Positions 9,337 through 63,734 of a stretch of 64,000 nucleotides of DNA are shown here, piece after piece (positions within the stretch are counted from its first letter, which is position 1; each line of letters starts with the position of its first letter). Below the pieces are notes generated by a model. It had not been told where the DNA came from. It searched no databases and was given only the letters and a program-made list of their open reading frames with translations. Source of the stretch: a virus (Duplodnaviria > Caudoviricetes); the IMG/VR virus record IMGVR_UViG_3300028888_001547, positions 42,599 to 106,598 of that record; one strand, 5' to 3'. Made by a program: the position numbers and the translations under genes.

Positions 9337-10002
9337 TTATTTTGTTGTTGATTCAACTATTCTTATGTTATTGCTCTTAAGTAGCTCATTAGTATTATAG
9401 TTAACATACTTACGTTTTTCTACTTTCTTCCAATCCCATGTGAATAGTCTCTTTATGAAGTTCTTTTTGTTCTTATACTCTTTAGTAGTATAGATATATA
9501 AATACTGCTCATTCTGTATATCTAAGCCTATATTTACAGTATCTCTACCAATAGTATAGTAGACGGTAGTAAGATCATTATACTTTAAAGAATCAGTATA
9601 AGTAGTATCTTTTAGTATAGTTACTAAGTCACCCCCTACCCCCTTACTATCATTAACGTTTAAAACCTGAGATTGCGTTGCAGCAGTTAAAATAGATTTT
9701 GATTTAAGTTTTAACTTATTTCTTATACTATCTAACTTATGTAACGTAATATCGTTTTGTCTCTCTAATTCTTTTATGTCTAGCCTTAAAACATTATTAG
9801 CCTACTAGGAGCTATCTAATAACCCCTAATAGGCTTCAATGTTGTTCTGAGCCATTTCTAGCTCCTGTGACAGCTTTATATTGCTTCTGTGGGTATTTAT
9901 ACCCCACAACAGTAAAAACGCAACAGAAGCCACGCAAATGCCCTTAACGGCCATCTTCCAGTGGTTCTTCAGCCACAGGAGTGTCGTTAGTATGTTCATC
10001 AT
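9337..10002 (-). CDS. Putative spanin/Rz-like membrane protein (~221 aa, TAG=Gln)
   Basis: Missing from ORF track because of 3 TAGs; N-terminal TM segment (GICVASVAFLLLWGI) followed by coiled coil; overlaps the holin 3' end; TAA 9337. Confidence 0.55.
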
Positions 10003-10486
10003 CAAAATTTAGTTCTATTCCTGTGTAGTCCTCACCTTTCTTCCTGAGAAATTTACCGAGTAAACGCCAAGGACCCTTTGGATCAAGTGTATTTAAATTT
10101 TCTATAATGGACCAAATTTCAGTCAATGTTATAATTACGGCCGCACCTCCGGTAAGTAAAAATACTCCAGATTCATCAAATACAGCCCATTCGAGGCCAT
10201 GCAATAAAGCTAATATTATTGCTTCATCTTTGATCTTTCTAAGCGTACCATCCCAGTTCTTACCGCTTTCAATTTTCTTTTTAAGTTTCCTAGCTACTTT
10301 CATTCCGTAGACCATATCTACGGTTGTAGTAACGAAACATATCGCCAACAGATACCATATAGGAGCAAAGTACGATACTACAGCAGAACCTATGCCAAGT
10401 AAAAACTTGCCTGTAGCACTACCGTTAACCATTGTATTTAATGTGTTAGCAATAGCCTATAGTGTATGTGATATGTGTTGTATCAT
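9944..10486 (-). CDS. Holin (phage holin family 4-like)
   Basis: Several TM segments with D...G...A and EIWSIIENL motifs; upstream in-frame ATG 10486 with one TAG (alternative start 10432). Confidence 0.75.
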
Positions 10487-59843: not shown

Positions 59844-60040
59844 TTTCTGAATGTTATAGGACAGGACATGCGGGTGTTCTGTCCTTTTGTATGTATTCTT
59901 ATAATGTCCGAGGTTAAGGGGCGTGCTTCGCGCACGTGAGGTTGGGAGATGTAATGTCAAACATCTGGTAGGACATTTTAAATTGAATCTTTTTGGGTTT
60001 AATTAACATAATTTATTAACAATTTAATCATTTATCAAAA

Positions 60041-60604
60041 ATGAACAAAATTCTTACAGTGGGTCTAACGATCCTTGCATCAGTAATCATTACGATTGCC
60101 GTGCTCGCAGGAGTAAACTCTTGCACAGAGAATGGACTTGGTGCTTACATCAAAGGTCCTATTGAGCCTACAGACATTGAAACGTCTGTAGAGAATGCTA
60201 TCAACCCTCAGATGATTTCATCAGACGAGGTAGTTGCTTTCCAGATAGCTATGGCTACCAAGAACAACGTGGATTCTATCTTCTTATCCATGTCTGAAGA
60301 GGCTATTCGTGCAGTGTCTACGGTGTTATTGAGAACATCGACTAGTGTAACAGTGCAGGAAATAGTCAACGAGTATACGCATCCTACGATTTTGAACTAT
60401 AACAATCTACCAACTTCAAAGGATACGAGTACTAAATCCGACAGTTCTACCAACAAACCGATTGCATCCGTAGAATTAGTCAAAGAAGAGAAAACGACGG
60501 TGACGGAGGCACCGCCAACCAGGGTAGATAAGACTACCACCACCAGTAAAGATACTGTTGTGGATGGTAAGAAAGTAACAATAACAACAACCGTCCACGA
60601 GTAG
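60041..60604 (+). CDS. Membrane-anchored/lipoprotein-like protein with Thr-rich tail (TAG stop)
   Basis: Hydrophobic N-terminus ending LAGVNSC; Thr/Ser-rich C-terminus. Confidence 0.7.
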   Translation: MNKILTVGLTILASVIITIAVLAGVNSCTENGLGAYIKGPIEPTDIETSVENAINPQMISSDEVVAFQIAMATKNNVDSIFLSMSEEAIRAVSTVLLRTSTSVTVQEIVNEYTHPTILNYNNLPTSKDTSTKSDSSTNKPIASVELVKEEKTTVTEAPPTRVDKTTTTSKDTVVDGKKVTITTTVHE

Positions 60605-60607
60605 ATT

Positions 60608-61099
60608 ATGGGTAGAAAAGTAGCACTTGTAATAACCTATGATGGTGCAGAACCAGATGATATGACAAAGTCACACATCTGTGATACCTTGGCACAGTCA
60701 GGATGCTGTAATTGTCAAAAAGAAATATGTATCTATTTCGTAAGCGAGAAAGAGTTGGTACAAGCAATTGCAGCAAAACCTGTGCCTACTGTTATCAACC
60801 AGCACTTTTACAAAAGTGAGGAACATCTGACTGAGCAAGAACTTGCTGTTACGTACATTGCAGGTATCTGCAAAGATAGTATCAACAAGTCTGTTAGTCA
60901 CTTTGCTGCAGATTTTGCAGTAAAGTTCTGCGACTCCGTCCGAAAAGGAAACGATCCGCAACTCTTAGAGGCTGTAAAAATCCTTAAAAGAGACTACGCA
61001 ATGTCTCGTGTTGGCGACAAAGTACGTCGCGAGACAGGGTTTAACGATGAGATTTATAACATCGTATTGAACATAAGTAGCGATATGTGGAATGTCTAG
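60608..61099 (+). CDS. Hypothetical protein (163 aa; TAG stop)
   Basis: Intact ORF in frame with the preceding gene. Confidence 0.7.
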   Translation: MGRKVALVITYDGAEPDDMTKSHICDTLAQSGCCNCQKEICIYFVSEKELVQAIAAKPVPTVINQHFYKSEEHLTEQELAVTYIAGICKDSINKSVSHFAADFAVKFCDSVRKGNDPQLLEAVKILKRDYAMSRVGDKVRRETGFNDEIYNIVLNISSDMWNV

Positions 61100-61269
61100 A
61101 ACCTATCGAAAGGTGTTTGTTGGTAAAAAAGGCCAACGCCATCAAAATGCAATTCCCTATAAGCGTCAACGCACAGAGATTGAGATAGAAATCGAAATCT
61201 CAAGGGAACCAAGAAGATTTAAGTAACGGGGAAACCCACAGTAATAACAACTAAAATTTATCAAAAATT

Positions 61270-61770
61270 ATGGCATCAAAAGACAACAAAGAAAAGACAA
61301 TCGGTATTGCCGATGTCACAGTAGAGAACGTGAGCGATCAGCTTGAAAACGCTGGTAAGTTTGGAAAAGACATCATTGAGATGGCTAAGAAGAACCGCAA
61401 GGAGAAGGATGAGAAGAAGCTGGCAGAGGAGTTTGACGAACTCTCTCAGAAGTCATCATACTTCAATTTGCGCCTGGCCCTGCTTGCCAAGATGTACAAG
61501 AATGCATCAAAAGCCGCAGCTGAAGCTCGCGATAAGAGCCTCGAACTGTTTAAGAAGGTCGAGAGTGGTGAGCTGGACGCCGTTGGATTTGACAACGAGC
61601 AGAAGAAGCTTGCCAAGGAGCTTACAAAGAACATCGATGCTACACGCGAATCGCAGCGTACAGATGCTGAGCGTCTGCGCAAGCAGTTCCCGAACGGAAA
61701 TTGGTGGACTTGGGATAACGAGTTCTTTAACGGCATAACTGCCGCTATCCGTCGTTTGACCGAGAAGTAA
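61270..61770 (+). CDS. Helical hypothetical protein (166 aa)
   Basis: Intact ORF with MCP-like (high-expression) codon usage. Confidence 0.75.
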   Translation: MASKDNKEKTIGIADVTVENVSDQLENAGKFGKDIIEMAKKNRKEKDEKKLAEEFDELSQKSSYFNLRLALLAKMYKNASKAAAEARDKSLELFKKVESGELDAVGFDNEQKKLAKELTKNIDATRESQRTDAERLRKQFPNGNWWTWDNEFFNGITAAIRRLTEK

Positions 61771-61774
61771 AAAA

Positions 61775-62275
61775 TCCTGCGACAACCCCGAGCCTTTGAG
61801 CCAGTGGTTGCTCATGTGGTGAATAGAGAGGAGCTATATGAGGGACAGCCTACCACATTTAAAGGATGAAATGACATTCTGGACAAGAGTCAGAGTATGA
61901 GAAAGGATTATACTACTAGTGGAAATATTTTGTATAAGAATTCAAAATGGTTATTTAACCTGATAGACACACCAAACAAGTCGGTTTACCGGAGTGAGGT
62001 GTATTGACAGCGTTATAATTACATATAATTCTAATGTACATAATACAGAAACTAGTAGTTCCTTTCTATGTTACGCGAACCACGTCCGCAGGTAAGCAGT
62101 GAGCCAACGCTGTTAAAATATATTGGACCATTTGATCAAATCACTGTTGTGTCTGAGCCATTGAGCCGGTGCACCTTGTCCTCGAGGGGACTATATAAAG
62201 ACACTGCACAACATATCAAGAATGTGAACTATATACTATGTGCGAGCCTTCGAGCCAGAGCATGGTCAATGTAGA
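61775..62275 (+). ncRNA. Candidate structured ncRNA with repeated GAGCC-N3-GAGCC loops
   Basis: Motif at 61790, 62155 and 62244, each closed by a different stem; long-range complementarity. Confidence 0.5.
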
Positions 62276-62475
62276 ACATTTAAGGTGATGTTATAAGCGA
62301 TTTGAAGCGTCGTATATCCTTGAGTGGGCCAGCTACCCACAAGAGGCTAGAAAACGCGTCAGAGAGCCTGTAAATAGCCTTAAATTGGATTTTCCAACTG
62401 ATCATTGGGAGATTCAGCTGGGTTGCAGAGTAGTATTAACCATATACTCAATTTGACAAACTGCAACTAAAGAAA

Positions 62476-62750
62476 TCTTAGCGGTCTGAGGTATTTCGTT
62501 CGGACGAGGGTTCGAATCCCTCCGGGTCCACGGCAAGTCCCGAGTTCTATCTGTCACATAGAGCGAATAAGGGGTGACTATCTACGCAGCCCACTCGTAG
62601 GCCTCATGTGGGCATTCCGGGCTCGACAGGATTTTGACGGGCGGAGGAAGTAAAGACGTTAACGCTTTGATATAAAATTAAACGGCGATATGAACATCGT
62701 TGACTATACGGGCCTCAAGGAGGCAGCGTAAAGTCGGTGAAGGCTACCTA
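62476..62750 (+). ncRNA. ssrA: Two-piece (circularly permuted) tmRNA
   Basis: 3' tRNA-like half (GGACGAGGG-TTCGAAT-CCCTC-CGGGTCC-A, ends 62530) precedes the 5' half (GGGCTCGACAGGATTTTGACGG from 62619); G3.U70 pair; tag ORF 62684..62731 GDMNIVDYTGLKEAA-TAA; outer boundaries approximate. Confidence 0.85.
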
Positions 62751-62759
62751 AGTGCCTGA

Positions 62760-62817
62760 GAGTGAAAAGGAGACACTGGATTAACTCCAGGGTGGGTTCG
62801 ACTCCCACCATCACTCC
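62760..62817 (+). ncRNA. Truncated tRNA-like element
   Basis: GAGTGA/TCACTC stem, CTGGA-TTAAC-TCCAG hairpin, GGTGGG-TTCGACT-CCCACC T arm; no D arm. Confidence 0.5.
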
Positions 62818-62932
62818 TATGTGATAAAACGTGGACTGGCCAGAAAGAGGGAAAATGACACTTCCAACCTTCATTATCACAGAACATCCTCAGAGACCTC
62901 CAGGCCAGGAGAACATGTGAATCTGAGGATAA

Positions 62933-63012
62933 GGGCCTATAGCTCAATTGGCAGAGCTTGTACTAGTGAAGACTTAAGTGTCTGACGTTGGGTTCGAATC
63001 CCACTAGGCCCA
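62933..63012 (+). tRNA. tRNA-like RNA with irregular anticodon arm (isotype unassignable)
   Basis: GGGCCTA/TAGGCCC acceptor, canonical D arm and T loop, but no 5-bp/7-nt anticodon arm. Confidence 0.55.
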
Positions 63013-63147
63013 CTAACGTGGTAGCGAGTTTGAAGTAACATACGACGACTGAGTGAAAAGTGCGCACGAGTAACTGAACTAAGTGTATGTGAGATAAAGA
63101 AAAGCTTTAAAGTGTATCCGGCTGATTCCGCCACGTATTTTAACATT

Positions 63148-63221
63148 GGACTTTTAGCTCAGTTGGTTAGAGCAACAGACTCATAATCTGGAGGTCGCAG
63201 GTTCAAGCCCTGCATGGTCCA
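63148..63221 (+). tRNA. tRNA with CAT anticodon (Ile2-like or Met)
   Basis: GGACTTT/ATGGTCC acceptor, ACAGA-CT-CAT-AA-TCTGG arm, GCAGG-TTCAAGC-CCTGC; body resembles bacterial tRNA-Ile2. Confidence 0.85.
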
Positions 63222-63239
63222 CAAAATATATTATTAACA

Positions 63240-63734
63240 ATGATAACAAAAACAGGATACCGACAAATGCTTCGTGATAGGACTCCGAAGGTTGTCATCT
63301 TTGCACTAAAATGGTGTAAAGTAACAGATGCATGGCTTGACCATGTGTACAATAACTGGATTTGGATTTATAAAAGTAATGAAGAGCGGCTTAAAGCAAC
63401 TCGATCATTACTTGGATTAGATTCTAAAGAAGGTTTTAAATTTGAGGATACTATTCTGTGGGATAATTTCACAGAAGATGAAACGAAGCGTTGGAAAGCA
63501 ATAGTTACATGGGTATCCTGGTTTAGTAAAAATCATGCGTATATACAAAATACGTATGATATCTCTAAGAAATGTGGGAAAAACATTACTGAAATCAAGC
63601 TCAAAATTATATCTGAGCATCTAAAAGATTTTTGTCCCACAAATAAGGATAATCAAAAAGAACGTGAGCGTAAAAACATTTATGTAAACAAGCTTTGTGA
63701 TTTCCTTATCAACAGCTTTGAAAATCTTATATAA
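63240..63734 (+). CDS. Hypothetical protein (164 aa)
   Basis: Intact Trp-rich ORF. Confidence 0.7.
   Translation: MITKTGYRQMLRDRTPKVVIFALKWCKVTDAWLDHVYNNWIWIYKSNEERLKATRSLLGLDSKEGFKFEDTILWDNFTEDETKRWKAIVTWVSWFSKNHAYIQNTYDISKKCGKNITEIKLKIISEHLKDFCPTNKDNQKERERKNIYVNKLCDFLINSFENLI

Follow-up and report, generated by a model that had tools for sequence, protein, structure and literature searches.

What is the role of a long non-coding stretch in a gut phage in which one short tandem motif recurs, and what might read that motif? The question is raised by the final 64 kb of a virus record of 106,598 bp, complete according to CheckV. These 64,000 nucleotides, the whole stretch of DNA that was analysed, are called the window here. 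The nearest named relatives of the phage are crAss-like cr273_1 and cr272_1 (Crassvirales, Suoliviridae), and public runs give sheep and bovine gut as its source. In the mammalian gut, crAss-like phages are more abundant than any other viruses, and almost nothing is known of their gene regulation.

Near the end of the window, a gap at 61771-62440 contains no long open reading frame (the longest encodes 68 amino acids). An earlier sequence-only reading had placed a candidate non-coding RNA at 61775-62275 and noted copies of GAGCC-N3-GAGCC in it. That extent is too small, since the RNA spans 61771 to about 62440.

A conserved structured RNA between a protein gene and a tmRNA

The gap encodes a member of a conserved, structured and previously undescribed RNA family. 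The RNA, its parts and the neighbouring genes are as follows.

61270..61770, + strand: open reading frame of 166 codons, directly 5' of the RNA; its product is K/E-rich and all-helical
61771..62440, + strand: structured non-coding RNA in its window-clade form, with a large inserted arm (nhmmer homology, minimum free energy, no long ORF)
61783..61810, + strand: H1 hairpin, stem CAACC/GGTTG, loop cc-GAGCCTTTGAGCC-agt
61863..61880, + strand: Pa hairpin, AGGAUG/CAUUCU, hexaloop AAAUGA
61881..62087, + strand: H2 three-way junction, closing helix GGAC 61881-84 / GTCC 62084-87
62094..62113, + strand: Pb hairpin, AGCAGUG/CGCUGUU; its loop in the window clade is a single GAGCC (62100)
62133..62138, + strand: single-stranded UGAUCA, conserved in most members; may pair with the 3' hairpin loop
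62146..62212, + strand: H3 domain, helices GUUGUG/CACAAC and GGUG/CACU with a variable hairpin inside (from the alignment)
62213..62221, + strand: linker AUAUCAAGA, conserved in the alignment
62235..62266, + strand: H4 hairpin, ACUAUGU/GCAUGGU, loop gc-GAGCCUUCGAGCC-aga
62283..62420, + strand: 3' module, a long-range helix and two hairpins (RNAalifold)
62441..62822, + strand: permuted (two-piece) tmRNA gene (ARAGORN), directly 3' of the RNA and separate from it
62933-63012, + strand: tRNA with an insert (Rfam tRNA, 40.2 bits)
63148-63222, + strand: tRNA-Met, 3' of the tmRNA

The 61771-62440 RNA has a minimum free energy z-score of -3.7. Over the window, Rfam at gathering score places nothing in the gap, and cmscan at E<=10 over 61200-63300 gives the gap no match to any family. 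No description of this RNA family was found in the searchable literature. The tmRNA segment scores 39.3 bits against RF04321, which is under the gathering score. The possibility that the RNA is itself part of the two-piece tmRNA was rejected, since the tmRNA elements begin at 62441 and the RNA also occurs in two relatives, L006 and L008, that lack a tmRNA. The tRNA-like gene at 62933-63012 has an insertion of about 25 nt in the anticodon region and is not called by ARAGORN. This tRNA may contain an intron or be unusual in some other way.

Related loci were gathered through DNA-pattern scans of IMG/VR, nhmmer, and contigs encoding homologues of the upstream protein. The resulting family has 24 loci in crAss-like (Suoliviridae-type) phages, with RNAs of about 450-700 nt. 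By nhmmer, the window RNA is homologous to 20+ loci, and identity to it ranges from 90% (L040) down to detection by profile alone. Phages with GenBank records among the members are cr273_1 and Bohxovirus PV686213; when the gap was compared by blastn with 50,697 phage records, the only matches were fragments of the latter. Two pattern scans were set aside. A scan for two motifs returned mostly 8-mer tandem repeats unrelated to the window RNA, and the matches to TGGATTAGCTACCNA were for the most part due to chance.

The surroundings of the RNA are conserved as well. A homologous gene for a protein of about 150-220 residues lies directly upstream in all 23 members whose locus reaches that far, and the RNA starts between a few and about 20 nt past the stop codon of this gene in 23 of the 24 loci. 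A permuted tmRNA follows 20-60 nt downstream in 22 of 24 members. In the remaining two, L006 and L008, a tRNA-Arg takes its place.

Parts of the RNA and its motif also occur in other settings. gcgtcagagagcctgtaaatagccttaaat, a part of the 3' module, is found in solo copies apart from the full RNA in PV686213 (L159, about 1250-1320) and in L094 (about 9990-10090); one solo copy of the module in relatives has a 33-nt stretch that is 100% identical to the window. Other gut viral contigs of 30-60 kb (L056, L058, L059, L064 and about 20 further loci) contain TAACA...TAGAGCCTAAGAGCCATACCCGG, in which the same tandem pentamer has a different conserved context. Abundant, unexplained long non-coding RNAs are described for phi14:2, another crAss-like phage (10.1101/2020.03.07.982082). 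In the long intergenic RNAs of phi14:2 there are no comparable tandem repeats, and the motif is absent.

Evidence for transcription is provided by sheep-gut metatranscriptome contigs from three studies. They cover the open reading frame together with the RNA (60022-62258, with 2 differences, and 61246-62242) and bridge the RNA into the tmRNA (62213-62554); as these are contigs assembled from RNA libraries, carry-over of DNA is possible and transcript ends cannot be read from them. Contigs from three runs of two studies share a start at 61246, which lies 24 nt 5' of the start codon (ATG) of the 166-aa gene. Just upstream of this point no Bacteroidetes-type promoter is evident, and a search of 60950-61330 at E<=10 gave no Rfam ribozyme. 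Either processing of the transcript or a break in the assemblies could account for the shared start.

The fold is easiest to describe from its compact form. This form is about 450 nt long and consists, from 5' to 3', of H1, a variable linker, Pa, H2, Pb, H3, AUAUCAAGA, H4, and the 3' module. The tandem motif occupies the loops of H1, H2, and H4 and forms a 5' bulge in H3. Pb is followed by AAACUAUAU and then by UGAUCA. The hexaloop of Pa is AAUUAA in most relatives and AAAUGA in the window.

The window RNA differs from the compact form mainly at H2. Compact relatives have a plain hairpin at this position with the tandem motif in its loop. In the window phage, L040, L048, L262, L264, and L266, the two pentamers are separated by a variable arm of about 175 nt. 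Thus, the window has GAGTC (61887) on the 5' side of the junction and GAACC (62077) on the 3' side, with the inserted arm at 61897-62070. The split copy of the motif that had been proposed at 62077-62105 does exist, but its position was wrong, for its halves face each other across this junction.

The other hairpins agree with the initial proposals to differing degrees. The first motif does have its CAACC/GGTTG stem, the counterparts of which covary in relatives. The stem assigned to the third motif, CTATGT/GCATGG, was essentially right and extends to ACTATGT/GCATGGT with G.U pairs. The second motif had been assigned to the loop of a GTGT/GCAC hairpin; instead it forms a 5' bulge (62155-62167) between two stacked helices, GTTGTG 62146-51 / CACAAC 62207-12 and GGTG 62168-71 / CACT 62202-05. 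The same nested arrangement is repeated in the L097 type (ACAGUA/UACUGU, GGUG/CACU). A long-range pair GGACAAG/CTTGTCC, also proposed from the window, is not conserved by relatives. Another candidate, a closing helix between a 5' AUCCUGC and the 3' end, was dropped; it is present in the window and L040 only.

Covariation provides the main evidence for this fold. The segment from Pa through H2 to Pb has a covariation score of 0.496, compared with 0.174 in shuffles, and the real value was reached in 0 of 500. When the partners are slid against each other, the score falls to 0.02-0.10. In Pa, 95.7% of alignment cells are paired and five of the six pairs changed on both sides (alignment A4). Likewise, the inner helix of Pb is paired in 94% and has compensatory changes in relatives, and the H2 closing helix covaries within the window clade (GGAC/GTCC, CCAA/TTGG, AGAC/GTCT, CCGA/TCGG). 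Of the 22 pairs that RNAalifold gives for the 3' module (19 sequences), 18 show compensatory changes. The module contains the hairpins 62324-62340 (GUGGG/CCCAC, loop CCAGCUA) and 62388-62416 (11 bp, loop CUGAUCA, or yUGAUCAy in the compact form).

The short stems that bear the motif have a different sequence in nearly every lineage and are still complementary. For instance, the H1 stems of 16 representatives differ in sequence and keep their complementarity; the mean stem is 5.1 bp, compared with 3.1 bp when flanks are cross-paired. Permuted flanks reached the real mean in 0 of 2000 cases for H1, 4 of 2000 for H2, and 8 of 2000 for H4. Because many pairs are G.U when read on the + strand, the structure can be assigned to the transcript of that strand. 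The suggestion that the motif acts as a recognition element at the RNA level is borne out to this extent, because the motifs sit on covarying stems whose G.U pairs fit the + strand only.

Concerted change of the motif in the RNA and at gene starts

In the window, GAGCC-N3-GAGCC occurs exactly as first reported: GAGCCTTTGAGCC at 61790, GAGCCATTGAGCC at 62155, and GAGCCTTCGAGCC at 62244. Exact matches to GAGCCNNNGAGCC are confined to these three positions, both in the window and in the full genome of 106,598 bp. By chance, 0.03 matches are expected, and three were reached in 0 of 100 shuffles. When two mismatches are allowed, nothing rises above chance. The window RNA thus has three full copies (in H1, H3, and H4), all perfect and uniform, one copy split at H2, and additional single pentamers.

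The tandem sites number four in each family RNA; in most, GAGCC, GAGUC, and GAACC are mixed (together GARYC), with a 3-nt spacer. Some members depart from this pattern at all of their sites at once. All four sites of L199 are GTATC-N3-GTATC, all four of L223 are GAGCC-N2-GAGCC, and in L011 and L013 the spacer is UAA (TAA) at every RNA site. That four sites change together points to a single reader of all four. The repeated loops are therefore best described as putative recognition sites for a co-evolving factor.

Pairing with another RNA would be one conceivable way of reading the pentamer. A complementary partner, GGCTC-N3-GGCTC, is absent from either strand. The acceptor strand of the tmRNA contains the complement of GAGCC (GGGCUCG), and was rejected as a partner since the tmRNAs of other members and the GUAUC of L199 misfit. 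Pairing with the universal T-loop GGUUC was rejected as well, for it would account for the degeneracy of GARYC and not for GUAUC.

The sequence-only reading had called for a search of the motif in host or phage mRNA leaders, and in the phages the outcome is positive in relatives. The motif was searched in the complete genomes behind the RNA loci. In the genome of L199, there is a single other exact GTATCTTTGTATC, which the DNA-polymerase ATG follows after 2 nt. In that of L223, the sole other GAGCCTTGAGCC lies in the leader of a conserved gene for a protein of about 205 residues, 113 nt before the gene. In seven further genomes, 27 extra GARYC-N3-GARYC sites lie on the strand of the RNA and 4 on the opposite strand; a reversed control pattern gave few matches.

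Many of these extra sites are placed at gene starts. At eight of them, an ATG follows 0-2 nt past the second pentamer. Five phages have it at the DNA polymerase gene (phrog_1252); the remaining sites belong to a Sak4-like annealing protein (phrog_124) and to two genes with no name. One DNA-polymerase operator of this type reads GAGTCTTTGAACC-ATG. Some further sites overlap a gene start by up to 26 nt, and five are located within a hairpin in the leader of the ~205-aa gene. The motif also lies within a sigma-factor gene, where conservation of the peptide RITE, and not regulation, may account for it.

Since the RNA and the gene starts have matching variants of the motif within one genome, a shared trans-acting reader that acts at the RNA level is suggested. 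From the sequences compared here, the tracking would be hard to explain except by such a reader.

Two further features of these genomes were seen. The DNA-polymerase operator lies 18-25 nt past the 3' end of a tRNA in L301 (G004:49700), L330 (G010:52694), and L268 (G001:59081). At such a distance, processing of the tRNA would leave an mRNA whose short leader is little more than the motif. The ~205-aa gene is preceded by some 2.1 kb devoid of ORFs in L008 (5270-7490) and L013 (8373-10466, oriented). These stretches end in the motif-bearing leader hairpin and probably contain further non-coding RNAs.

The phage of the window and its closest relatives do not follow the pattern in full. No full tandem site occurs outside the RNA in the window genome (G000) or in its two closest relatives (G008, G009), and the motif is absent at the DNA-polymerase start of the window genome (G000:9876). 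The orthologous leader hairpin, GTCC-GAGCCGAGA-GGAC, has a half-site only and lies 69 nt before the gene of the corresponding 202-aa protein. The ATG of this gene is at G000:5929, about 7.6 kb downstream of the RNA if the genome is circularly permuted. A scan of the window genome for single GAGYC in hairpins gave no trustworthy enrichment near starts. In this clade, the mRNA sites are gone or reduced to a half-site, and the RNA may serve mainly as a carrier or store of the putative factor.

Candidate readers and competing explanations

The reading favoured here, somewhat better than evenly, is that the RNA is a multi-site decoy or scaffold for a putative sequence-specific RNA-binding factor. 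In this model, a large multi-domain RNA would be transcribed rightward with the 166-aa gene or just after it, ahead of the tmRNA. The tandem pentamers on their variable stems would be binding sites of one factor for single-stranded RNA. Each site is a direct repeat with a period of 8 nt, so the factor would most likely be a phage-encoded protein that is dimeric or has two domains. In most family members, the RNA would then compete for the factor with the motif-bearing mRNAs of replication and recombination genes, whether the factor represses or activates them. Through such competition, translation of the replication module would depend on how much of the RNA is present.

A broader form of the model can be held only tentatively. 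It would make the pentamer the address in a re-codable RNA system of Crassvirales: its letters and its spacing drift from lineage to lineage, all copies (four on the RNA, the others at replication-gene starts) stay in step, and the RNA is a tunable decoy that times the translation of replication genes, with the decoy alone kept in the window clade.

Two proteins are candidate partners, and neither is preferred. One is the 166-aa protein encoded directly upstream. The codon bias reported for its gene (61270-61770) is confirmed by a GC3 of 0.59, compared with 0.23-0.46 in neighbours, and by AAG making up 83% of lysine codons. The protein has no Pfam or PHROG family. Its AF2 model (pLDDT 80.6) is a long helical hairpin with helices at 33-98, 104-138, and 144-164, and a fold search with this model gave nothing informative and no recognisable RNA-binding fold. 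The window phage and L040 have the same motif in RNAs that are 90% identical, but share only about 24% identity in this protein. A sharp mosaic boundary falls at the stop codon when window 61270-61770 is compared with L040:11052-11543(-).

The other candidate is the 202-aa protein, which is 100% identical in the genomes of the window phage and L040. Its gene has a motif-bearing leader in many genomes, an arrangement that would suit autoregulation. The protein is predicted to form a small beta-barrel with a 50-residue helix. A fold search with the model stayed at noise level (the best match was a chromo-barrel, Z 4.6) and found no recognisable RNA-binding fold. A search of the ESM Atlas gave no usable match. 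No protein resembling CsrA was noted in the vicinity of the locus.

Three other explanations can be weighed against a decoy or scaffold. The pentamers and the palindromic loops might be tertiary and quaternary contacts of an ornate RNA that assembles with itself, the likeness to mRNAs being secondary. Large multi-domain phage RNAs beside tRNA-like genes are indeed represented by GOLLD and ROOL (PMC12286853). In most members of the present family, the loops of the hairpins 62324-62340 and 62388-62416 are palindromic (UAGCUA-type and UGAUCA), and where UAGCUA has become UAAUUA in L011, self-complementarity is kept, which hints at possible loop-loop dimerisation. L086 offers one compensatory case for pairing of the internal UGAUCA with the 3' loop (GGGUCA with UGACCC), a pairing that several members misfit. 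However, palindromic loops are missing in L006, L026, L086, and L199. The pentamers themselves are not self-complementary, and neither GGCUC nor, for L199, GAUAC is found as a recurrent partner in the RNAs or the genomes. Nor can RNA folding account for a tandem motif that abuts the start codons of unrelated genes. An architecture of RNA alone is thus unlikely.

The same start-codon sites bear on the idea that the RNA is a cis-acting leader of the tmRNA/tRNA transcript, a platform for processing or stabilisation whose loops recruit a host maturation enzyme for the two-piece tmRNA. They are unrelated to tmRNA maturation, and a host enzyme would need no phage-specific recoding of the pentamer such as GTATC or N2 spacing. 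The persistence of the RNA beside tRNA-Arg in L006 and L008 also counts against this role. The short distance to the tmRNA in 22 of 24 members speaks for it, as do contigs that span both RNAs and the conservation of the 3' hairpin immediately before the acceptor piece; it is judged quite improbable. For repeats that act as DNA, as iterons or operators of a replication, packaging, or transcription protein with the hairpins incidental, the concerted change of copies is a genuine parallel, being typical of iterons too. Yet the stems covary with G.U pairs, which are A.C on the opposite strand, and the extra sites are biased 27 to 4 towards one strand. An ATG fixed 0-2 nt past the motif suits translation and not DNA binding, and a repeat spacing of 8 nt within a loop is ill-suited to a dimer that binds duplex DNA. 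This explanation can be given very little weight.

Known systems and the place of this RNA among them

The locus defines a class of large structured RNA that is absent from Rfam and tied to replication genes marked by its motif. Its natural variants (GAGCC, GARYC mixtures, GTATC, and N2 spacing) are built-in specificity swaps, which make the system directly testable, and correlated change across genomes is a route to identifying the binding factor. If the decoy model is true, we know of no earlier case in which a phage encodes a sponge RNA to control its own replication module, and the RNA would account for one long non-coding stretch of crAss-like genomes.

TwoAYGGAY-like RNAs, known from gut-derived sequences, also repeat a short conserved motif in the terminal loops of hairpins. 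Their motif, size, context, and taxon all differ from those of the present family, and there is no Rfam match.

GOLLD and ROOL are closer in architecture. They too extend over several hundred nucleotides, have many covarying helices, are encoded by phages, and adjoin tRNA-like genes; the window RNA lies directly upstream of a tmRNA and two tRNAs, and its relatives are placed likewise. The palindromic loops of the family could mediate self-association. Covariance models of GOLLD, ROOL, OLE, HEARO, and raiA gave no match at E<=10 over 61200-63300 and none at gathering score over the window. We know of no counterpart in GOLLD or ROOL to repeated tandem pentamers that are shared with mRNAs.

Another comparison is provided by the translational repressors of phage T4, which include RegA with its regulon and the autoregulated gp43 and gp32. 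As with these, the sites in the relatives overlap or abut the starts of the DNA polymerase and of other replication and recombination genes, and the sites in the leader of one conserved gene could mean autoregulation. Unlike the T4 operators, the mRNA sites are absent in the window phage, except for the half-site in one leader. To our knowledge, RegA, gp43, and gp32 have no decoy RNA.

A decoy is the element that CsrB and RsmZ supply for CsrA and RsmA. Covariance models of sponges of this type gave no match in cmscan over 61200-63300 at E<=10. The motif is also a different one, a tandem GARYC-N3-GARYC (GUAUC in L199) instead of GGA; it is recoded between phages, and the family RNA has large conserved domains outside the repeats. 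In both cases, many copies of a short motif are displayed in the loops of variable stems, the same motif is found at the translation-initiation regions of target mRNAs, and the implied binder is dimeric, so that the logic of the present family would be that of a decoy.
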